43,220 nt of DNA from a virus (Duplodnaviria; Heunggongvirae; Uroviricota; Caudoviricetes). The notes below the pieces were generated by a model. That model ran no database searches. It was not told where the DNA came from and worked only from the letters and a program-made list of their open reading frames with translations. The DNA is taken from IMG/VR virus record IMGVR_UViG_2526164633_000017, one strand, 5' to 3'. Positions within the stretch are counted from its first letter, which is position 1. Every line of letters starts with the position of its first letter. Below, one piece after another: positions 1,009 to 35,169 of the stretch. The position numbers and the translations under genes are program-made.

Positions 1009-1550
1009 TAGTTATCTCCGTCATGGTAAACAAATTTATAAATCTGATGCGCGGGTTTATATTTCTCCAGTAAACATTCCAGCGCACCCGATTCATAAAC
1101 ACGTAACGGCGTCAGGACATTATCCAGCACCGTTGCGTTGCGATAATTTTTAATACCGTAAATATTGACCTGCGTAACCCACTGGCTTTCTGTGGAATCC
1201 GTCAGCCTGACGGTAAAACCGTACTGCGCAGCCAGCCATTCATAAAAGCGCCGACTCAGATTGCCGGTCATACGCATTTTATTCGCGGCAGCCCGCTGGC
1301 GTTCGGACAGGGTGCCGTTTTCGCTTGTACAGTCCGGCAACCCCAGAAATGATTCCCACTCCCCCAGATACCAGCGGGATGTGGACGGGAAACGCTCCCG
1401 CAGCATTTGCCGCGCATCATCCGCCGCACTGGCAATCACGTCACTGATGGCCTGCGCCAGCGCAGATAATTTGCTGTCGGGGCTTTTATTCCAGGCAAGC
1501 CCTGACGGCAGTAATTGCAGAAAGGCCGTCTGATAGGGTGTTACAGCCAT
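1008..1550 (-). CDS. Tail/baseplate protein (Mu gp48-like)
   Basis: 180-aa ORF, position immediately after baseplate J-like gene and before tail fibre; family resemblance by eye. Confidence 0.7.
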   Translation of the reverse strand: MAVTPYQTAFLQLLPSGLAWNKSPDSKLSALAQAISDVIASAADDARQMLRERFPSTSRWYLGEWESFLGLPDCTSENGTLSERQRAAANKMRMTGNLSRRFYEWLAAQYGFTVRLTDSTESQWVTQVNIYGIKNYRNATVLDNVLTPLRVYESGALECLLEKYKPAHQIYKFVYHDGDN

Positions 1551-2623
1551 TCAATTGTCCCCGGTGTTAACAGTTCCGTATTCTCCGAACGCTGGATCTC
1601 TGTCGGGAAACGCACTTCAAAATCATCCAGACCGGTAACACCTGCCACCGCACGGATAATACGGGAGGTGGCAAGTGCGCCGCCCGGCGTCACCTCATTA
1701 AAAAACATGGTATTAATGGCGTGGGTAATAGCCTGTTTCAGTTCGGCTGTCTTCGGTGATATATAAATCCGTGGATTTACCGGCTTTGCCTTTGGCGCAA
1801 ATACAGTGACATTTACACCGTCAGGCTGTCCGACAATCAGACCGGTGATCGGGTCAGTATGACCGGCGATATAATCCGCCACGCGTTCCACGTCTGCCGG
1901 TTGTGGAAAAATATTGCTCCGGTTATCCATAACAAACGTCACCCCGACTGTGCCACCGCCTTTCCATGTCGGAAAACACCAGGCACGGGTAACGCCGCTG
2001 ACTTCACGTGCCCAGCGGACGTAATCAAACTGATTACCGCCGAACGGAGGATACTGGACACGATATTCCAGCCGTGACAGCAGCTCCGCTGCACTCTCAA
2101 TATCAGCTCCACCGGAAAACCCTTTTACAGTGATGGCATCGGAAACAACACAGGCAACCGGGGTGATCAACGTTAAAAGGGTATTCTCACCGGTATTTCC
2201 TGCCTCACCGGCAGCCAGTGCGGTAACGGTAATTTCCGTCGTTCCTGCACGGTCAATCACAATGGCATCAGCCAGGCTGTAAACCACACCATCAGCACGC
2301 TGCCAGCGTGTACCGGCAGGAATGGTGGTCGCTGCCGATGTGGTGACAGTCAGCGGGCCGCTGGCGGCTGTCGCCTGTTTGCGGCGCACCCCCCAGAACC
2401 GGCAGTGCTCCAGCAACTCATCTTCATCTGCTGTCGACGGGATAATCTGCCGTCCAACCCATGAAATATGCTCGTGACAACCGGCAGCAAGGCCCGCCTG
2501 AGCATAAGCAATGGCACTCAGCGTTTTTTCACGGGCCTGAGGCCAGCTACCCGGCAGGCGCTGTTCAATATTCTGTTCTGTACGGGCAATCAGCGATGAT
2601 AATGTCGGTGGTGAATAAGCCAT
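1541..2623 (-). CDS. Baseplate J-like protein (Mu gp47-like)
   Basis: 360-aa ORF in conserved baseplate gene order; overlaps neighbours by a few nt (translational coupling). Confidence 0.8.
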   Translation of the reverse strand: MAYSPPTLSSLIARTEQNIEQRLPGSWPQAREKTLSAIAYAQAGLAAGCHEHISWVGRQIIPSTADEDELLEHCRFWGVRRKQATAASGPLTVTTSAATTIPAGTRWQRADGVVYSLADAIVIDRAGTTEITVTALAAGEAGNTGENTLLTLITPVACVVSDAITVKGFSGGADIESAAELLSRLEYRVQYPPFGGNQFDYVRWAREVSGVTRAWCFPTWKGGGTVGVTFVMDNRSNIFPQPADVERVADYIAGHTDPITGLIVGQPDGVNVTVFAPKAKPVNPRIYISPKTAELKQAITHAINTMFFNEVTPGGALATSRIIRAVAGVTGLDDFEVRFPTEIQRSENTELLTPGTIEWL

Positions 2624-3061
2624 TTAAACCCCGTTAAATGCTGCTTTAAACTCATAAGGAATAACGGAACCATCCGGTAATGTCAGTGCAATGTAGAGGT
2701 ATAACCAGCCCTGATGTAACTGTTCCGCCCTGACGTTAATCGCACTTACCCGGCCCGCTGTTTTCAGCCATTCCAGCGCCTCTTCGGCATACCCTCTGGC
2801 GCGTTCCAGCGTATCCGGTGTGGCTTTTTCACGTGATAACAGCCACAACCGCGAACCGATGGGGCGGTCGCGGTAACTGTCACCCCACCATCCACGGCGA
2901 TCATCTGAACCATCCGGCAGCGTGTCAGAATCCAGCGAGCGCCGGTCGGTAAACAGGGAGATTGTCACATCGGTTGTCAGGCTGTCGTCGGTCAGCATAT
3001 CAATGCCATCCTGTGCAATATCGCCGCGTCCGTTCGTCCAGATAATGGCTAAATCGGTCAT
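2624..3061 (-). CDS. Baseplate protein (Mu gp46-like)
   Basis: 145-aa ORF, acidic, in baseplate cluster. Confidence 0.7.
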   Translation of the reverse strand: MTDLAIIWTNGRGDIAQDGIDMLTDDSLTTDVTISLFTDRRSLDSDTLPDGSDDRRGWWGDSYRDRPIGSRLWLLSREKATPDTLERARGYAEEALEWLKTAGRVSAINVRAEQLHQGWLYLYIALTLPDGSVIPYEFKAAFNGV

Positions 3062-3651
3062 TGCATTGGCCCCGTGGTTCCGCCGCTATCGCCACGGTGG
3101 ATATGCTTATCCGTCGATTTGCCATTGATGATGGCATCCGGGGCAGTAATATTGCTGTCGAACTGGCTTTTACCTTTAACGCCCAGACCTTTCTGGATCT
3201 CAACGTCGCCGGTAAACGTGGTTCTGGGTGTGTCAACGGTCATACTTTCATCAGCGTAAACCTCAACCGTTTTACAGGTAATGATGCAGCGTCCGTCCTT
3301 TGTCAGCCTGATACGATGCCCCTCGTGGTGGTAAATGCCAGCATCACCCGGTTCAAGATTTGTCGGGCGGTAGCGGCGGTCTTCCACCACAACGGCAATC
3401 CCCTGATCACGTTGTGCACCCACACAGGCAATCAGCGCCTCTGCGCCCGGCAGAGGAACGCTGAAATGCCCGTAATTTTGCAGGCGCTCCACTTCATCAG
3501 ATTCCTCATCATCCAGCAGACCAACCTGCAGGTTCTGAACCTTTCGTCCGTCGTTAATCACGTTAACAACGGCACGCGCAAGCATCAGGCGCACACGACG
3601 CATCAGCGGCATCAGCAGGCGGTTCATGGCGGAATCATTTACTCTTTCCAC
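3058..3651 (-). CDS. Baseplate assembly protein V / spike (Mu gp45-like)
   Basis: 197-aa ORF in baseplate cluster, gene order. Confidence 0.7.
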   Translation of the reverse strand: MERVNDSAMNRLLMPLMRRVRLMLARAVVNVINDGRKVQNLQVGLLDDEESDEVERLQNYGHFSVPLPGAEALIACVGAQRDQGIAVVVEDRRYRPTNLEPGDAGIYHHEGHRIRLTKDGRCIITCKTVEVYADESMTVDTPRTTFTGDVEIQKGLGVKGKSQFDSNITAPDAIINGKSTDKHIHRGDSGGTTGPMQ

Positions 3652-4778
3652 GGCGGCGTTTTCTCCGGGTGTCTGCGATAATAATCTTCAACCAGCGCAT
3701 CAATACCGCCGTTACTGTCGCCGCCTTTCCTGTTTTTACGGTCGCTTTCAACCGGCACCAGAAAGCCTTCGCGTGGTGCAAGGCTGACGCGGGTTTTCAG
3801 CCCGTCCTGGTCATTCAGTATCAGGGTGACTTTGCTGACCAGTAATTCCGTGGTTTTGATGGCATATTTCGAGGCATCAATAGTGACCAGCAGGTTCGGC
3901 ATCCAGAGTTGCCCGTCCTTGCGAGTCCATCCGTCAATTTCTGCCTCAAAGGTGATGGATTTTGCCAGTCTGCGGCGTTGCTCACGCAGGGCGCGGGCCT
4001 GTGCATCCTTCGCCGTAATCTTGCTGTCAGCAATGATGATCATCGGTCTGTAACGGGTCACATCACTGTCAGTGGCGGTCCCTTTCCGGGAGACGATACT
4101 TTTCGCATCAATATCATCACCCTCAGCACCATTTGCGCGGGCATACCCCTTGACGGTGTATTCGCTGAACCGGTCGCGGAAGTCTTCCTCAAAATCCAGC
4201 GTCAGCAGATTTTCTCCGAGAACCAGCTCATCAGTGGCTGTGCTGGCAGCCCGGCTGAATACCAGCTCTCCGGCGGCATTGCTGGTCATCAGTACACCGC
4301 GTGCGCGGGAGGCACGCACCAGCGCCTCATAAACGGTTTCTGAATGGTCCAGCGTGAAGCCGGGAAAAGCTGCCGAACTTTCCTTATCGGAAAGCTCCCA
4401 GCGAACGGTAACGCCATAAGGAGCGCACAGGTCACGCGCAATCTGCTCCAGTGTGCGTTTTTTCCACTGTCCGCCACTGTAAACGGCAGCACAGTCAATC
4501 AGGTCAGCCGTTTTGTCACGTCCGGCGACAGTGATTTTCATACTGTCAGCGGTCATCTGGCGTCGCCGTGAATCGATATAACCGGTGCAGACAATCTGCC
4601 CCTCGATTTCGAGCGTGAACTTCTTCCCCGGAGCCAGCCCGGATAAATCCGTGCCCGGTGGCACGTTCACCCCCAGCTCAAAATATCCGGCTACGGATTC
4701 AATCGAGCGGGTGACAGAGACTGACGTCCAGCCGGTAAAAAGCCTGCCATCCGTTCGCAGCGTGACGGTATTACTCAT
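3639..4778 (-). CDS. Baseplate hub / late control D-like protein (Mu gp44-like)
   Basis: 379-aa ORF following the DNA circulation gene; order and size fit. Confidence 0.75.
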
Positions 4779-5522
4779 TAATCACCTCAATACTGACACC
4801 ACCGGGAACAAACAACGGGTTGCTGATACCGTTCCTGCGGGCCAGCCGTTGCCAGTTCCGGCTGTTTCCTGTGTAACGGTACAGGGCCACCATTGCAGGC
4901 ATCGTCTCCGGCAGGCGGTGCGTTTCACTGCCCGCCAGTTGCAGCCCGCGTTTTTCCAGGTCGGCAACAACCAGCAGACGCAGTTGCGTAAGCTGAACGC
5001 TGTCTGTCGAAAAGCCCTGCTCAGATGCCGTCAGAATGACGGTATCCAGTGCAGCCCCCAGCATGGCGGCTGTTTTTCCGATATCGGACACACTTTCAAA
5101 TACCGGGGGCGTGGCTGTACCACTGTCTGAAAAGGATACCTGTGAAAAACCGCCGTCCGGGGTTATGGCAGTTAACTGTAACTGTCCCTGTGTGACGGTA
5201 GCGGATGTGCTGCTGGCCCCGATGGCTGTGCCGGTTGTGGTGGACGGGGCATCCAGTACAGGTGCACGGGCGGCATTATCCATCCGGCGACTGAAATCCA
5301 GTGCCGCAGTCAGTGCCTGGCTGGCAGCTTCTGCCCGGTATGTCTGCGCCGCTGCCAGCATGACGTAGTTCAGTGTGGCAATATTTTTTTCTGCAACCGG
5401 ACTGTTGTACGAGGTTGTGATTGTCCCCTGTCTGCCTGCGGTGGCAGCATGGCGACGTTCGAATCGCTGCGCCAGACGGTTCCATGTGGAAAATGCTGTC
5501 CGGGTATCGCATAACGATGAAA
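4771..5522 (-). pseudogene. DNA circulation protein (Mu N/gp43-like), C-terminal fragment, separated from its 5' part by IS66-family insertion
   Basis: ORF 4771..5361 is in-frame continuation up to the IS boundary at 5522; the N-terminal fragment lies at 7977..8720; combined length about 498 aa matches an intact gene. Confidence 0.75.
5515..5522. repeat. Target site duplication CGATGAAA (left copy) of IS66-family insertion
   Basis: Identical 8-mer CGATGAAA at 5515-5522 and 7977-7984 directly flanking the element ends. Confidence 0.85.
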
Positions 5523-7984: not shown

Positions 7985-8720
7985 CGCCGGACAGCGCCCC
8001 CATCAGCGAGGAGGCCAGCATGGCAGGCTGGTTAATCAGGCTGGTCACAGAGCCTTTCATCGCAGAAAGCGATCCCATCAGACCGCTGACAGTCTGCGTA
8101 ACCCCCAGATTGTCCACCGCATCACTGATATCATCGATGACACCGGTTACAGCTTCCATCACGGCGGTTGCCGCCGCAGTGCCATCTTTTACGGTCTGCC
8201 AGACAGAGGACAGCGTATCTCCCAGAGAACCGGTTACAGCAACGGCCTGTGCCGGTACGGCTGCACTGGTGTCTGTCTCTGCGTCCGGGGCAGTATCCTG
8301 CAACGACGGATAAACGGTAACGGTGAACGCGTAATAATTCAGTTCATCCGCTTTAGTGCGGCATTCCCATGAATCCACCATGACGTCCACAGTGCCGAAA
8401 TCAGGATGTACCAGCTCACCGCTACCCGGAGCATCAAGAGCATCCATCAGCGCACCCGCTTCATCTCTGGCTGTTTCTGCGTTGCTGTTCAGAATGCAGG
8501 CGCTGAATGTACGGGAGCGAAGCTTTTTCCCCAGGTCATTGACGCCGCCGGTATCACGTAACGGGTACTCGCGTTTAACCAGGCGACGTCCGCCAGCCTG
8601 TTTTTGCTCCTCGATGACGAGAAACGGCACGTTACGGAACGTGCCTTTGCCGGTTGTTTTCCTGCCTCCACCGGTTTTATCCCGGACAGCATTAACGACA
8701 TTTAAAGCATCTTCAAACAT
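7977..8720 (-). pseudogene. DNA circulation protein (Mu N/gp43-like), N-terminal fragment truncated by IS66-family insertion
   Basis: ORF 7941..8720 runs from its ATG into the IS right end and terminates 36 nt inside the element. Confidence 0.75.
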
Positions 8721-24521: not shown

Positions 24522-24548
24522 AAATAACCGGCAGGATGCCGGTTATTT
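24522..24548 (-). promoter_or_regulatory. Perfect interrupted palindrome AAATAACCGGC-N5-GCCGGTTATTT between C and lys; candidate activator site for late lys promoter and/or transcript end
   Basis: 11-bp arms at 24522-24532 and 24538-24548, overlapping the stop codon of the C-like gene, about 75 bp upstream of lys ATG. Confidence 0.45.
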
Positions 24549-24965
24549 TGGGCTTTCAGGTGAGAACAGATCAGGCTGATGACGTCGTGTATGCAGCTTT
24601 CTCTGGCGGGCAATAATCTGGTAGATCTGCGGCTGGGACAGGCGGTACTGGCGACGCAGTTCTTCCATGTTACGACCATTAAACTGGCAGTAAAGCAAAT
24701 CGTCGCGTAACGCGGTCAGGATCGTATCGCCGCAGGGGATGTAAAACTGCCGTCCACCCAGAAAACAGGACAGGGCAACGGCCTGTTTACGGGCAAGTTC
24801 ACGGGGATTGCTGACGTTCTGGCGTTTCAGTTCGTTTTCCAGAACATCAATCAGATCAACCACCGAACGGGGCCAGCGTGATTCCAGTTCCGGGGCCGGG
24901 ATGTTATCAATATGTCCGATTAACTGGCGAATTGCCGGATCGTGTTCAAATAAATCATGCTGCAT
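24543..24965 (-). CDS. C: Late transcription activator (Mu C-like, Mor/C family)
   Basis: 140-aa ORF; Mor/C family features (C-terminal HTH, QFNGRN motif shared with the Mor-like paralogue at 25944..26333); precedes lysis and morphogenesis genes. Confidence 0.85.
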   Translation of the reverse strand: MQHDLFEHDPAIRQLIGHIDNIPAPELESRWPRSVVDLIDVLENELKRQNVSNPRELARKQAVALSCFLGGRQFYIPCGDTILTALRDDLLYCQFNGRNMEELRRQYRLSQPQIYQIIARQRKLHTRRHQPDLFSPESPK

Positions 24966-25006
24966 ATTTTCCCCCGGTTAACAGACAAAAAGATACACCA
25001 CGGCAC

Positions 25007-25020
25007 TGATGGTTATCAGA
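25007..25020 (-). promoter_or_regulatory. Palindrome CTGATGGTTATCAG upstream of C-like gene; candidate middle-promoter element
   Basis: Dyad symmetric 14-mer in the 112-bp gap upstream of the C-like gene. Confidence 0.3.
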
Positions 25021-25077
25021 ACCACAAGGGCAATCACTTTTATCGCATTAATCAGCGTGGACGGCCCGAAACATTCA

Positions 25078-25308
25078 TCACTGAATTTTCTGTACACAAT
25101 ATTTTTCCTTATAACGTTGACAGTGGTGAAGAATTTCCGGCATATCAACTGACTGCCAGCCTTTCATGTAATAACTGCCGTGGGTGCCATCGTGCCCTGT
25201 GTAATCCATTGGCTTTGGTGGTGGGCCTCCGGCCTCCCGATGTAATACCTCCTGTCGTAAACGTTCACGCCTGCCGAACTGAAAGGACGCATCCCACCCT
25301 TTACCCAT
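25078..25308 (-). CDS. Hypothetical small protein
   Basis: ORF 25078..25362 in track; internal ATG at 25306-25308 avoids most overlap with upstream gene. No recognisable domain. Confidence 0.3.
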   Translation of the reverse strand: MGKGWDASFQFGRRERLRQEVLHREAGGPPPKPMDYTGHDGTHGSYYMKGWQSVDMPEILHHCQRYKEKYCVQKIQ

Positions 25309-25861
25309 GCAGAACCTCCCGACAGGCGCTGGCGAGCAGATCCAGACGGTTAAACCAGCCATTCAGATATTTCCCCTGCGAGGCACTGGATTTGATAATC
25401 CCTGCGTAATAGCGGGAACGACGCAGGAAGCACTGCAACAGCAGCCAGTCAGTATCGGCACGCAGAACGGCTGCGCGTGTGTTTTTACCGACGATGCCAT
25501 CATCATCAACACCTGCTGCCGCCTGGAGGATCTGAATCGCGCGTTTAACACCGTGCTGAACGGCAGCATCAAAAACGAATAAGGAAACGCCATCAGGCCA
25601 TTCGTTACACTTTGCCGCCAGCCAGTAATCACGCCAGTAGATCTGCGCCGCCTGCTCGCGGGTTAAATCCTTAATGCGGGTATCAGGTTTTCCGTCACCG
25701 TTAACATCGGTTTTGCCATCAATAACGCCGTCGCGACGGTCAGAAATACCGTATTTCGTTTCGCCGCCACGGTCGGCAGGATCATTAACATAGCCACCTT
25801 CAACATCAGGGCGTATAACGAAATTCAGCGAATGAAGGAATGCAGGGGAAAACTCAGGCAT
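25301..25861 (-). CDS. Peptidoglycan hydrolase, GH108-like N-terminal domain with C-terminal peptidoglycan-binding-like domain
   Basis: 186-aa ORF with motif EGGYVNDPADRGGETKYGI near N-terminus (characteristic of glycoside hydrolase family 108) and DGIVGKNT-type peptidoglycan-binding region. Confidence 0.7.
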   Translation of the reverse strand: MPEFSPAFLHSLNFVIRPDVEGGYVNDPADRGGETKYGISDRRDGVIDGKTDVNGDGKPDTRIKDLTREQAAQIYWRDYWLAAKCNEWPDGVSLFVFDAAVQHGVKRAIQILQAAAGVDDDGIVGKNTRAAVLRADTDWLLLQCFLRRSRYYAGIIKSSASQGKYLNGWFNRLDLLASACREVLHG

Positions 25862-25943: not shown

Positions 25944-26333
25944 TTAAAACAAAGGGGGGGAACACTGACGATACTTTATACGCCGCATTCGTCGGATGGC
26001 TTTATAGACTGTGTTAAATGTCACACCATGACGGATTGCCAGTTCGTGAACATTGCGACCGTTGAAATCATTCCAGATACGCAAATCCCGAATAAGCGAA
26101 TCCAGAACCTGACCGCGTGGAATGTAGACCTGACCGCCGCCCAGATGCTTACAGATAGCCACAACAATCTCCAGTGAATGGGCCGGGTCAACACCTAACC
26201 GGGACAATTCCCCGCGCAGTAAATCGTTCAGCTCCGCCAGCAGTGCCGGAAAGCGTGACGTATCCTCTGCGGGATTGTCAAGATGTGCCAGGATGGTGTC
26301 ATCCTGCAAATCACCAAATAAATCTTCCGTCAT
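25944..26333 (-). CDS. mor: Middle operon regulator (Mu Mor-like, Mor/C family)
   Basis: 129-aa ORF, paralogous to the C-like protein (shared ...GGGQVYIPRG... / ...NDFNGRN... motifs). Confidence 0.85.
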   Translation of the reverse strand: MTEDLFGDLQDDTILAHLDNPAEDTSRFPALLAELNDLLRGELSRLGVDPAHSLEIVVAICKHLGGGQVYIPRGQVLDSLIRDLRIWNDFNGRNVHELAIRHGVTFNTVYKAIRRMRRIKYRQCSPPLF

Positions 26334-26881
26334 TGTGCCATCCTCCGTGTCTTTCTGGCACGGGCATAAGCCGCCGTCATGGCATCATAGCCGCGCAGTT
26401 CACGCCCGGACGGACTGACTGGCAACGGAAGCCCGTGACGGGAAAAGGCTTCACGAATACAGCGGATATGCCACTGCTTGAGAGTTTCGAGAACAATCAA
26501 CAGGGTGTCGCCATGACACCACGCCAGCGTGGAAACACCCTGTCCGCCATTACGTTTCGCCGTCAGGCGCTGAACATATTTATCCAGCGCCACATCACCG
26601 CCATCGGTAATAAAACCGTCTTCTGCCATCTGCTGCCAGACTTTGTATACCTTCTCGCGGGGCGTGACATGCCCCTTAAAGCGGCGACGTGGATGTTTAT
26701 TCAGCTTCTTAAAGCCGCGTTCTTTCATGGCATCGAGCACCTGTTCCAGTTGCGTAACCGTCAGCTCGCGGCAACTGATTTTGCCCGTTTTCTGCATCAG
26801 AAAAGCGCGGTAAGTGTCGTCGTCGAGTTGTAGCTCCCGACGGGCGACATGGATTAATTTAATCAGGGATGTGCGATTCAT
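26330..26881 (-). CDS. gemA: GemA-like early protein (Mu gp16-like)
   Basis: 183-aa ORF immediately upstream of mor, translationally coupled. Confidence 0.7.
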   Translation of the reverse strand: MNRTSLIKLIHVARRELQLDDDTYRAFLMQKTGKISCRELTVTQLEQVLDAMKERGFKKLNKHPRRRFKGHVTPREKVYKVWQQMAEDGFITDGGDVALDKYVQRLTAKRNGGQGVSTLAWCHGDTLLIVLETLKQWHIRCIREAFSRHGLPLPVSPSGRELRGYDAMTAAYARARKTRRMAQ

Positions 26882-26899
26882 GATCGTACCTCCGGAAAG

Positions 26900-26921
26900 A
26901 GGCGGTGCTGCAACACCGCCT
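26900..26921. promoter_or_regulatory. Hairpin AGGCGGTG-N6-CACCGCCT
   Basis: 8-bp perfect inverted repeat located between gemA start and the plus-strand ORF start; no T-run, so not a canonical terminator. Confidence 0.4.
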
Positions 26922-26950
26922 GAATTTACACATCAATCAGAGAGGATTTT

Positions 26951-27217
26951 ATGGAAAATAATGTACAACCTTATGATGTTGCAGGTTATGCGATTGCATC
27001 AGCACTGGTGCGCCTTCTGGTGAAGAAGGCGATCATCACCGCAGAAGAGGGCCAGGCCATTTTCAGCTCTTCAGCAGAGATTTTAAAAGATGCGCCTGCA
27101 ATAAGAACAAGCCGCCGCGAAAACATGCAACTGTCAAAGATCATGGAAGACATTATCAGTTCGTTAGACCCAGATGCTGACGGATCTCAAAAGCCTCAAA
27201 CACATGAGCGTCAGTAA
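26951..27217 (+). CDS. Hypothetical protein encoded opposite to the early operon
   Basis: 88-aa ORF with GAGAGGA Shine-Dalgarno 6 nt upstream of ATG; fills an otherwise non-coding 274-bp gap on the minus strand. Confidence 0.5.
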   Translation: MENNVQPYDVAGYAIASALVRLLVKKAIITAEEGQAIFSSSAEILKDAPAIRTSRRENMQLSKIMEDIISSLDPDADGSQKPQTHERQ

Positions 27218-27458
27218 CAATATCCTGGTCTGATAACCCCAGCCTGCGGCGGATGTACTCCTCGCGGGCTGTTTCATTTTGCAGTGCCACTACTGTTTCC
27301 AGACGATTCATTTCGCGGTTGATAATGTCACGGACTTCTCTGGCGGTGAGATTATGCTTAATACCATATTCAACGATAGCGCGAACACGTTCCAGCATCC
27401 CTTTTTCAGCCATGACGTTATCAATATTAAGGGGAGTAAATTTATCTTCATTGTTCAT
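27156..27458 (-). CDS. Hypothetical early protein
   Basis: 100-aa ORF, translationally coupled to upstream ORF. Confidence 0.55.
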   Translation of the reverse strand: MNNEDKFTPLNIDNVMAEKGMLERVRAIVEYGIKHNLTAREVRDIINREMNRLETVVALQNETAREEYIRRRLGLSDQDIVTDAHVFEAFEIRQHLGLTN

Positions 27459-27778
27459 TTTGCGGCCCTCAGAATAAATTCAGGATAAAATTTCAGACTC
27501 ATTTGCCGTAACACATCCAGTGCAGCAACGGCTGCTGATTTATCGTTGCCATCAGCAATAGCGCGGAGATTTTCAATAATCCAGTGAGGACTCAGTGACT
27601 CAGCAATAATGCCAAACCGGTACGCCATGACCTCATCAATAGCTTTTTCATGAGACGGCTCATATACAAAATTCACAAAGTCATGCACTTCTTTTTTCGG
27701 CAAACCACCGGCAATCAGCAGGGCGGCAAGCTCTTCTGATTTTGAAAATACACCATTATTCATGTCACTCACCTTCAC
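27455..27778 (-). CDS. Hypothetical early protein
   Basis: 107-aa ORF. Confidence 0.55.
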   Translation of the reverse strand: MKVSDMNNGVFSKSEELAALLIAGGLPKKEVHDFVNFVYEPSHEKAIDEVMAYRFGIIAESLSPHWIIENLRAIADGNDKSAAVAALDVLRQMSLKFYPEFILRAAK

Positions 27779-27947
27779 AATTCATGCACGCCGTGTCATC
27801 GCCCATATCGCAGTGGTTACATTTCTGCCCGCCACAATGAGGGCACTCTTTCAGATATTCAGGGGATTCATTACCGCAGGTCGGGCATTCCTGTTTCACC
27901 GTGGTAAATTTCCCCAGCCACGAATACGATGTTTCATTGTTTTCCAT
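27765..27947 (-). CDS. Small Cys-rich zinc-binding protein (four CxxC pairs)
   Basis: 60-aa ORF: CPTC, CPHC, CNHC, CMNC. Confidence 0.55.
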   Translation of the reverse strand: MENNETSYSWLGKFTTVKQECPTCGNESPEYLKECPHCGGQKCNHCDMGDDTACMNCEGE

Positions 27948-34623: not shown

Positions 34624-35169
34624 ATGGATAAGCTGAAAGGAAAGTCACTTTCTTTGCCGGAAGTGACAAAAGAAAGTATCCCGGAGCGTTTGAGAGAATT
34701 AATTGGAAAAAGAAGTGTAAGGGCTGCTGCGAAAGATTGGGGGTTGTCTTTTTCTACTTTAAACAATTACCTGACGCGAGGTACTGAACCTTCACTCAGT
34801 GTGGCTCGGCAGATAGCTGCAATTGAAGGGGTTACTATCGAATGGATATGTGGATCACATGATGATTCATATGAGAATCACCCAATTTCAACTAACACGC
34901 ATAATGAGAATACAAAACTCATTATGAACATCATTAACGCCTTGGATGCAAAGGATATTGAGCGACTATCTAAGACTCTTGCCCTCAATGGTGCTAAGTA
35001 TCTGACTCAAATGTTGGAACCCGAAAATCAAGGCTTACTGCGTCTTGAAGGACGAAAACGTGTCGCCGCGCTGCTATTAGATGATTTACCTGATGAGCGT
35101 ATCAGAGAGATTTTGGAAGAAATTGAGAGCAGCAAACTCTCAAGTAGTGTAAAATCGAGAGCGGGCTAG
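34624..35169 (+). CDS. c: Prophage repressor (Mu c-like)
   Basis: 181-aa ORF divergent from ner-A-B operon; HTH-like segment (VRAAAKDWGLSFSTLNNYLTRG); RBS AGGAAAG upstream. Confidence 0.75.
   Translation: MDKLKGKSLSLPEVTKESIPERLRELIGKRSVRAAAKDWGLSFSTLNNYLTRGTEPSLSVARQIAAIEGVTIEWICGSHDDSYENHPISTNTHNENTKLIMNIINALDAKDIERLSKTLALNGAKYLTQMLEPENQGLLRLEGRKRVAALLLDDLPDERIREILEEIESSKLSSSVKSRAG

Follow-up and report, generated by a model that had tools for sequence, protein, structure and literature searches.

Morons, the accessory genes of temperate phages described by Hendrix and colleagues, are autonomous units equipped with their own promoter and terminator. The subject of the present analysis, an 88-codon gene set backwards in the early region of a Mu-like prophage, resembles them in lying between genes that are adjacent in related phages, in having a G+C content below that of gemA, in being followed by a predicted terminator and in being dispensable; it differs from them in that promoter scans returned only weak candidates and in that the unit may be a two-gene module formed with gene 14. 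The gene is already catalogued, as the hypothetical proteins gp15 of phage Mu (Mup15, NP_050619) and gp16 of phage SfMu (YP_009152202). Both are the same gene as ours, likewise placed backwards between gene 14 and gemA, and no substantive difference separates them from the copy studied here, which is identical to the SfMu protein. More distant counterparts are a 119-aa ORF of phage D108 (PHROG 38610) and a 79-aa ORF of phage JNE122137 (PHROG 32893). Both match our gene in slot, orientation, distance to gemA (~70 nt), convergent overlap with gene 14, a terminator-like hairpin downstream and a shared core motif. They differ in being only 13–30% identical to its product and in carrying N- and C-terminal extensions unlike it.

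Exclusion activity has been demonstrated for olg1/sie1 of Fc02, a transposable phage of Pseudomonas (PMC9936078). These forward-strand genes resemble the one considered here in being small, in running counter to the lytic early operon and in sharing part of their sequence with an early gene of the complementary strand; their transcription in the lysogen is reported as probable, a promoter having been found immediately before them (PMC9936078). They adjoin the repressor, however, and not gemA, and they bear no sequence relationship to our gene.

The window, a 43,220-nt stretch of viral DNA (IMGVR_UViG_2526164633_000017), contains a Mu-like prophage on the minus strand in which MuA, MuB, Gam, GemA, Mor, C and gp45/gp48 are recognisable. 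A preliminary description held that every gene of this element other than the repressor is on the minus strand, with the exception of one plus-strand ORF; for the element as far as gp48, where the window stops short of the tail-fibre/G-segment end, this agrees with the ORF map and the Pfam matches. The repressor candidate, at 34624–35169 (+), is a helix-turn-helix protein with a weak match to HTH_3 (Cro/C1; E=2e-4, below the Pfam cut-off). The features of the interval around the backwards ORF are as follows.

26330–26881, minus strand: gemA, the divergent neighbour (Pfam GemA, E=2e-30)
26900–26921, minus strand: hairpin of the gemA leader, from stem conservation and RNA folds
26923–26951, minus strand: candidate gemA-directed promoter, TAAAAT-17-TAAATT, from a PWM scan
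26940–26946, plus strand: Shine-Dalgarno sequence of the 88-aa gene, GAGAGGA, read from the sequence
26951–27217, plus strand: the 88-aa gene, orthologue of phage Mu gp15 (Mup15) and SfMu gp16
26986–27153, minus strand: 55-aa ORF equivalent to Mu_54, judged to be no gene
27156–27458, minus strand: gene 14 (Mu E15), the convergent early gene, from the ORF map
27240–27281, plus strand: predicted intrinsic terminator, a hairpin followed by a T-run, from folding and covariation

The ORF map bears out the arrangement that had been claimed. A plus-strand ORF of 88 codons, opening at the first in-frame start codon past a stop, occupies the 274-bp gap (26882–27155) between the gemA start codon (26879–26881, minus strand) and the gene 14 stop codon (27156–27158, minus strand), and it converges with gene 14, the two sharing 62 nt (27156–27217) at their 3′ ends. 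The Shine-Dalgarno sequence, described earlier as strong, lies 4 nt 5′ of the ATG, and a purine-rich counterpart is found at the equivalent place in every lineage, though the spacer around it diverges. From the gemA start codon to the ATG of the backwards gene there are 69 nt in the window and ~70 nt in all lineages.

Several features elsewhere in the window deserve mention in their own right. Between mor (25944–26333) and the C activator gene (24543–24965) lies a gene for a 186-aa lysozyme with Glyco_hydro_108 and PG_binding_3 domains (25301–25861, minus strand), at the place taken by the small genes 18–20 in Mu and 19–20 in SfMu. The distance from mor to C is ~980 bp in the window versus ~420 bp in SfMu, and the ~330 bp downstream of the lysozyme gene (24966–25300) contain no convincing ORF. 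In the early region, a 60-aa gene at 27765–27947 (minus strand) encodes four Cys pairs (CPTC, CPHC, CNHC and CMNC) and looks like a small zinc-ribbon protein; homologous ORFs occur in the Mu-like element of the Stx phage (positions 575–715 of that locus).

Searching the databases with the 88-aa protein, as the preliminary description had proposed, led directly to the catalogued Mu gp15 and PHROG 8747. The protein has 100% amino acid identity to its counterparts in SfMu and in vB_YpM_5 and vB_YpM_6 and 95.5% to that of Mu (tblastn), and it matches phrog_8747 over residues 1–88 of 88 (E=1.3e-60). At the nucleotide level, 1.5 kb around the ORF is 100% identical to the Yersinia phages vB_YpM_5 and vB_YpM_6, and 99.6% identical to SfMu, a phage of Shigella; phage Mu is 96.6% identical across 77% of the query. 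The slot and the counter-orientation are the same in NC_000929, NC_027382, E. coli W and loci L007–L015.

Public records treat this interval in conflicting ways. The Mu RefSeq record (NC_000929) annotates Mup15/gp15 on the reverse strand, that is, on the same strand as the window ORF; the SfMu record (NC_027382) annotates gp16 on this strand; and the NCBI pipeline PGAP calls a hypothetical protein on it in E. coli W and other genomes. An older record of the Mu left end, M64097, lists the ORF as the putative ORF 'F-134'. The current GenBank record of Mu, AF083977, contains no backwards gene and instead places in the interval Mu_54, a 55-aa ORF on the same strand as the early genes, together with a 'semi-early promoter' between Mu_54 and gemA (feature 8151..8217). 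The D108 record leaves a 376-bp gap unannotated. Mu is a reference genome, and at this position its two public annotations disagree, with a backwards gp15 in RefSeq and a forward Mu_54 in GenBank.

An ORF of 88 codons is by itself weak evidence for a gene, and coding was therefore tested directly. A codon-usage score was trained on 26 of the prophage's genes. It gives the ORF frame a log-likelihood of +0.338 and the other five frames −0.23 to −0.76; true in-frame 68-codon windows give 0.335 ± 0.142, and real genes read in their best wrong frame −0.143 ± 0.142. In codons 1–66, which lie outside the overlap with gene 14, the ORF frame has no stop codon in five lineages at 42–52% amino acid identity, and every other frame has 1–7. 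Pairwise dN/dS is 0.17–0.47 in all comparisons but that of window and Mu, a near-identical pair with 5 differences and a ratio of 1.17. All 12 Mu-type copies examined are intact; the few substitutions within the Mu-type clade are mostly non-synonymous and uninformative. Neither of the outcomes that would speak against a gene, an ORF unconserved in close relatives or non-coding codon usage, was thus observed: conservation favours coding, and the ORF scores like true genes.

The frame of Mu_54 fares differently. That the plus-strand ORF is no gene and that the interval codes instead for Mu_54, or is a non-coding leader, draws on a curated update of the Mu GenBank record that has Mu_54 and lacks the backwards gene, and on the pN/pS of the Mu_54 frame, which is similarly low to that of the ORF frame. 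The low value is, however, the expected by-product of third codon positions that the antisense frame shares with gp15. Since dN/dS cannot separate the two for this reason, stop codons and codon usage were used. The Mu_54 frame has an internal stop in two Salmonella lineages (L011 and L012), a codon-usage score of −0.227, typical of a wrong frame, no counterpart in D108, no PHROG match better than E=0.13 and only a 3-nt ribosome binding site annotated in AF083977, whereas the plus-strand frame passes every test and is kept by three remote alleles. We regard it as extremely improbable that the ORF is not a gene. The backwards ORF is a real protein-coding gene whose 88 codons evolve under purifying selection, and Mu_54 is most likely an annotation error; comparative and codon-usage evidence settles the conflict for gp15. 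A purely antisense, non-coding role, which had been raised as one possibility, is disfavoured by the open frame and its codon usage, and the interval has no Rfam match near the gathering score; transcriptional interference may be an added effect of the unit.

Exhaustive HMMER scanning of 1.84 billion representatives retrieved three diverged homologues (P0007, P0008 and P0009) of 86–90 aa and 45–51% identity. Their contigs are Mu-like prophages, and in each the gene is backwards, begins at a distance of 70–74 nt from the start of gemA and runs into the 3′ end of the early-strand gene that precedes it. A further hit, a 1438-aa repeat protein (P0006), was rejected as a compositional artefact, and a scan of species-representative genomes yielded no relative. 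The gp15 family is restricted to phages isolated on Yersinia and to Mu-like prophages of Escherichia, Shigella and Salmonella, and the interval is present in 31 of 5426 complete E. coli genomes. As to its conservation and orientation in other Mu-like prophages, the gene invariably faces the other way, with ~70 nt between it and the gemA ATG and with an overlap onto the 3′ end of the upstream early gene. The C-terminal part of P0008, from the Salmonella locus L011, departs from its relatives from approximately residue 67; the same locus carries an IS256-family transposase gene (Transposase_mut, 4236–5444) in place of gene 14.

In D108, a different 119-aa ORF with a good Shine-Dalgarno sequence occupies the same place in the same orientation. 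Direct comparison of the window and D108 proteins is not significant (BLASTP E=0.67; Smith-Waterman score equalled by 138 of 2000 shuffles). Both match PHROG 32893 (phrog_32893) over the same core, and the Mu-like element harboured by Stx1 phage JNE122137 (L031) has a 79-aa member of this PHROG in the corresponding slot. We accept the kinship of the window and D108 proteins because both match this third PHROG, one member of which occupies the same slot; the cross-matches and the slot member make PHROGs 8747, 32893 and 38610 one family. MAFFT aligns the window, D108 and JNE122137 proteins in the register matched by the PHROGs. Their common core runs from the segment aromatic-x-[VI]-[AT]-[AG]-[YF] through a hydrophobic helix and a [GA][IV]I turn to another helix; the core motif can be written aromatic-x-[VI]-[AT]-[AG]-[YF]...L..L...[GA][IV]I. 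The D108 ORF, at 1452–1811 (plus strand) of NC_013594 (L004), is unannotated there and has its own Shine-Dalgarno sequence and terminator-like hairpin; public assemblies include it as a called protein (P0005, with 19 member sequences), and the D108 record should gain it as an annotated homologue.

In other relatives the slot has different contents or is vacant. Klebsiella phage Kp4866-3 carries a backwards gene of 134 aa at this place, which belongs to phrog_585 and is weakly DUF2513-like; it was considered as a distant member of the gp15 family and rejected (hhalign probability 0.2%). In PhiR68_1 and a Vibrio phage, the slot has no backwards gene. The Yersinia phages vB_YpM_3 and vB_YpM_23 have a 223-bp deletion (window 26936–27158), flanked by ATCA microhomology, that takes out the Shine-Dalgarno sequence and codons 1–69. 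Both phages form plaques, and phage-PCR-positive colonies have been obtained from them (PMC10434027); judged from these natural deletions, the gene is dispensable for plaque formation and lysogenisation. The slot is accordingly a hotspot that contains one of three mutually remote alleles (the Mu, D108 and Stx-Mu types), unrelated Klebsiella cargo, or nothing. What looks like another cargo point lies between gemA and mor in two Salmonella loci (L012 and L013, 2860–3387), where a second backwards gene (111 aa, 3052–3387, plus strand) stands beside a 63-aa early-strand gene; neither has a significant family match.

Exchange at the slot appears to extend to the neighbouring gene. Mu and D108 share 96% identity in GemA and 98% in Mor, but 31% in gene 14 and 14–21% in gp15; the flanks being alike and these two genes diverged, the exchanged module is gene 14 plus gp15. 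The G+C content of the 88-aa gene is 46.1%, versus 54.2% for gemA and 53.7% for the prophage, and is likewise low in gene 14 (45.5%) and the gene that follows (43.5%). Because gene 14 is equally low in G+C and is exchanged jointly, what moves may be gene 14 and gp15 as a pair and not a one-gene moron. The suggestion that the gene is an independently regulated moron stands in part: it is counter-oriented, looks independently transcribed and behaves as an accessory cassette, with its own predicted terminator, low G+C content, patchy presence and unrelated cargo in the same slot, but no consensus sigma-70 promoter was found for it.

The predicted terminator begins 23 nt past the stop codon of the 88-aa gene and lies in antisense within the coding sequence of gene 14, the last 62 nt of which overlap the tail of the backwards gene. 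Its hairpin, CAGCCTGCG...CGCGGGCTG at 27240–27271, is followed by TTTCATTTTG, and an equivalent hairpin and T-run occur in L007, L012, D108 and JNE122137 despite the diverged gene 14 sequences. In four lineages, the plus- and minus-strand folds have energies of −21.3/−17.9, −19.9/−19.2, −21.0/−12.9 and −19.5/−13.7 kcal/mol; the plus-strand RNA folds better because several of the pairs are G·U, which correspond to C·A mismatches on the other strand. In the alignment, 93.6% of cells are paired and three pairs show changes in both partners; sliding the register lowers the pairing to 41–59%. Since only about four lineages are independent, the covariation support is moderate. AF083977 lists a TransTermHP terminator at the same place. 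Taken as a prediction from folding and covariation, the 88-aa gene would thus have a conserved intrinsic terminator of its own.

On the other side of the gene, the 8-bp perfect hairpin that had been reported between the ORF and the gemA start is present as AGGCGGTG (26900–26907), CTGCAA and CACCGCCT (26914–26921). The stem GGCGGTG/CACCGCC does not vary between lineages, apart from a covarying outer pair in PhiR68_1 (AGCGGTG..CACCGCT). Read on the early (minus) strand, the order is hairpin, T-rich tract (26893–26899), gemA Shine-Dalgarno sequence (CCTCC on the plus strand, 26889–26893) and ATG, and the T-tract has 3 to 8 T across lineages. Two observations take the hairpin away from the 88-aa gene and assign it to the gemA leader: PhiR68_1 keeps it before gemA without a backwards gene, and its T-tract belongs to the early strand. 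We read it as a terminator-like element of that leader. As it is the same whatever the allele, it is no allele-specific operator. Activator sites of the Mor/C type are centred near −43.5; the hairpin was considered as such a site and rejected, its position being unfit for either gene on that spacing. Adjacent to it, the segment CATGATCGTACCTCC (26879–26887), comprising gemA start codon, spacer and Shine-Dalgarno sequence, is nearly invariant across lineages that share only ~40% identity in GemA; it includes a GATC (Dam) site at the gemA start codon, which reads TATC in L007 and JNE122137.

PWM scanning placed the candidate gemA-directed promoter at a position conserved in the window, L011 and L012, the Salmonella lineages having TTGAAA-17-TAAATA. 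Its −35 element lies over the start codon of the 88-aa gene, its predicted start lies inside the first hairpin arm, and it falls within the 'semi-early promoter' feature of AF083977. Transcripts from this promoter would lack the complete hairpin and so escape termination, and transcripts derived from the early promoter Pe would meet it. For the 88-aa gene itself, a consensus sigma-70 scan found no promoter on the plus strand. The PWM scan of that strand gave only weak, position-conserved candidates, such as TTTAAT-18-GATCGT over the gemA start (TATCGT in L007 and JNE122137), which would place the hairpin at the 5′ end of the mRNA. Another candidate, with its −35 in the hairpin loop, is conserved in position in D108, L011, L012 and JNE122137 but is unlikely, as it would start transcription inside or after the Shine-Dalgarno sequence and is poor in the window. 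With no convincing promoter, independent transcription rests on orientation, Shine-Dalgarno sequence and terminator. Literature searches returned nothing on expression of the gp15 interval.

An AlphaFold2 model from a 10-sequence alignment has helices at residues 8–25, 31–45, 49–53 and 61–72 followed by a disordered tail; confidence is moderate (mean pLDDT 68, with 83–92 across residues 11–40). The protein is accordingly predicted to be a small soluble helical bundle of ~70 residues with a disordered tail that is acidic and proline-rich. No DNA-binding, enzymatic or membrane signature was detected in it, and sequence and fold searches gave no informative homologue. The roles proposed at the outset as examples, toxin, immunity or anti-defence, gained no support, as no such family was matched in Pfam, NCBIfam, PADLOC, PHROGs or PDB sequence or fold searches; in PADLOC, 0 families were matched at E≤1 by the window protein, the D108 allele, P0007 or P0009.

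On balance, and with a little better than even confidence, we read the locus as an orthologue of Mu gp15 that codes for protein and forms a small autonomous unit set backwards in the early region, its product being a moron-like accessory factor. The gene faces the strong early promoter Pe, and polymerase collisions together with antisense RNA should silence it after induction. Given this head-on placement, the gene would be expected to be expressed chiefly in the lysogen, where Pe is repressed and the repressor too is made. Most plausibly the product would bind another protein, whether the host's, a competing phage's or Mu's own, a role suggested because it is a small soluble helical bundle without other signature. 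A timing opposite to this, in which the gene is expressed in lytic growth or just after infection and its product is a small inhibitor of a host function or of anti-phage defence, strikes us as unlikely. The gene does lie in the semi-essential early region, where Mu has host-interaction accessories such as gam and kil; it is dispensable; close phages have very different alleles, with flanks 95–98% identical and protein below 21%; and the predicted small helical bundle resembles designed helical binder proteins. Against lytic expression stand the orientation head-on to the early transcript, unfavourable while Pe is fully active, the lack of a match to any known defence or anti-defence family, and the promoter region, where no phage-activator promoter is evident and the palindrome does not fit a Mor/C-type site.

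Quite unlikely, too, is the view that the unit serves chiefly in transcriptional regulation, with the convergent gene, hairpin and T-tract limiting leaky Pe read-through into mor in the lysogen and the protein being secondary or a regulator of the gemA promoter. The signals of the backwards unit would then be interleaved with the gemA-directed 'semi-early' promoter, which accords with the −35 element over the ORF start codon, the start in the hairpin arm and the promoter annotated there in AF083977. The invariance of the ~70 nt to gemA even in the lineage with unrelated cargo, the terminator-like hairpin before gemA on the early strand in all lineages, and a spacer with candidate promoter elements that changes with the allele point the same way. 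The protein sequence is clearly under selection, however, so the unit is not merely a promoter; the hairpin is invariant across alleles; the predicted helices exceed the length expected of a classical helix-turn-helix, and none of the DNA-binding families is matched. PhiR68_1, vB_YpM_3, vB_YpM_23 and the Vibrio phage keep the hairpin without the backwards gene and are viable, so the arrangement is not required for the early-to-middle switch. Still less probable, and in our judgement very improbable, is a toxin-antitoxin-like or mutually antagonistic pair formed with gene 14. All five lineages compared have both genes, which are exchanged as a module and overlap at their 3′ ends, and both products are predicted to be small and helical (gene 14 being all-helical in a single-sequence structure model). 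Yet the genes are convergent and not co-transcribed, no toxin or antitoxin domain is found in Pfam, NCBIfam or PHROGs, vB_YpM_3 and vB_YpM_23 are viable with gene 14 but without the 88-aa gene, and in Salmonella L011 an IS takes the place of gene 14 and the homologue of the 88-aa gene is truncated.

Nothing about the gene or its slot is surprising in kind. What is added here is the resolution of the annotation conflict, the definition of the slot and of the predicted terminator, and the reassignment of the hairpin to the gemA leader. The sampled Mu-like prophages of Escherichia/Shigella, Salmonella and Klebsiella have a conserved backwards cargo slot with a predicted terminator, and the GC-rich hairpin recurs before gemA as a conserved part of the leader. 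Beyond the moron-like accessory factor that we favour, a broader and more doubtful proposal, which we put forward only tentatively, is that the gp15 superfamily (PHROGs 8747, 32893 and 38610) consists of fast-diversifying helical binders expressed in lysogens from the backwards slot and deployed in phage–phage or phage–host conflict, for example in superinfection exclusion or the inhibition of a host or rival-phage protein, with convergent transcription of the slot also helping to shield mor against leaky early transcripts. If this is true, the slot would be a second prophage-expressed locus in Mu besides the repressor. Should gp15 be expressed in lysogens, it would be among the very few Mu genes active in the repressed prophage and a candidate lysogenic-conversion or conflict gene.
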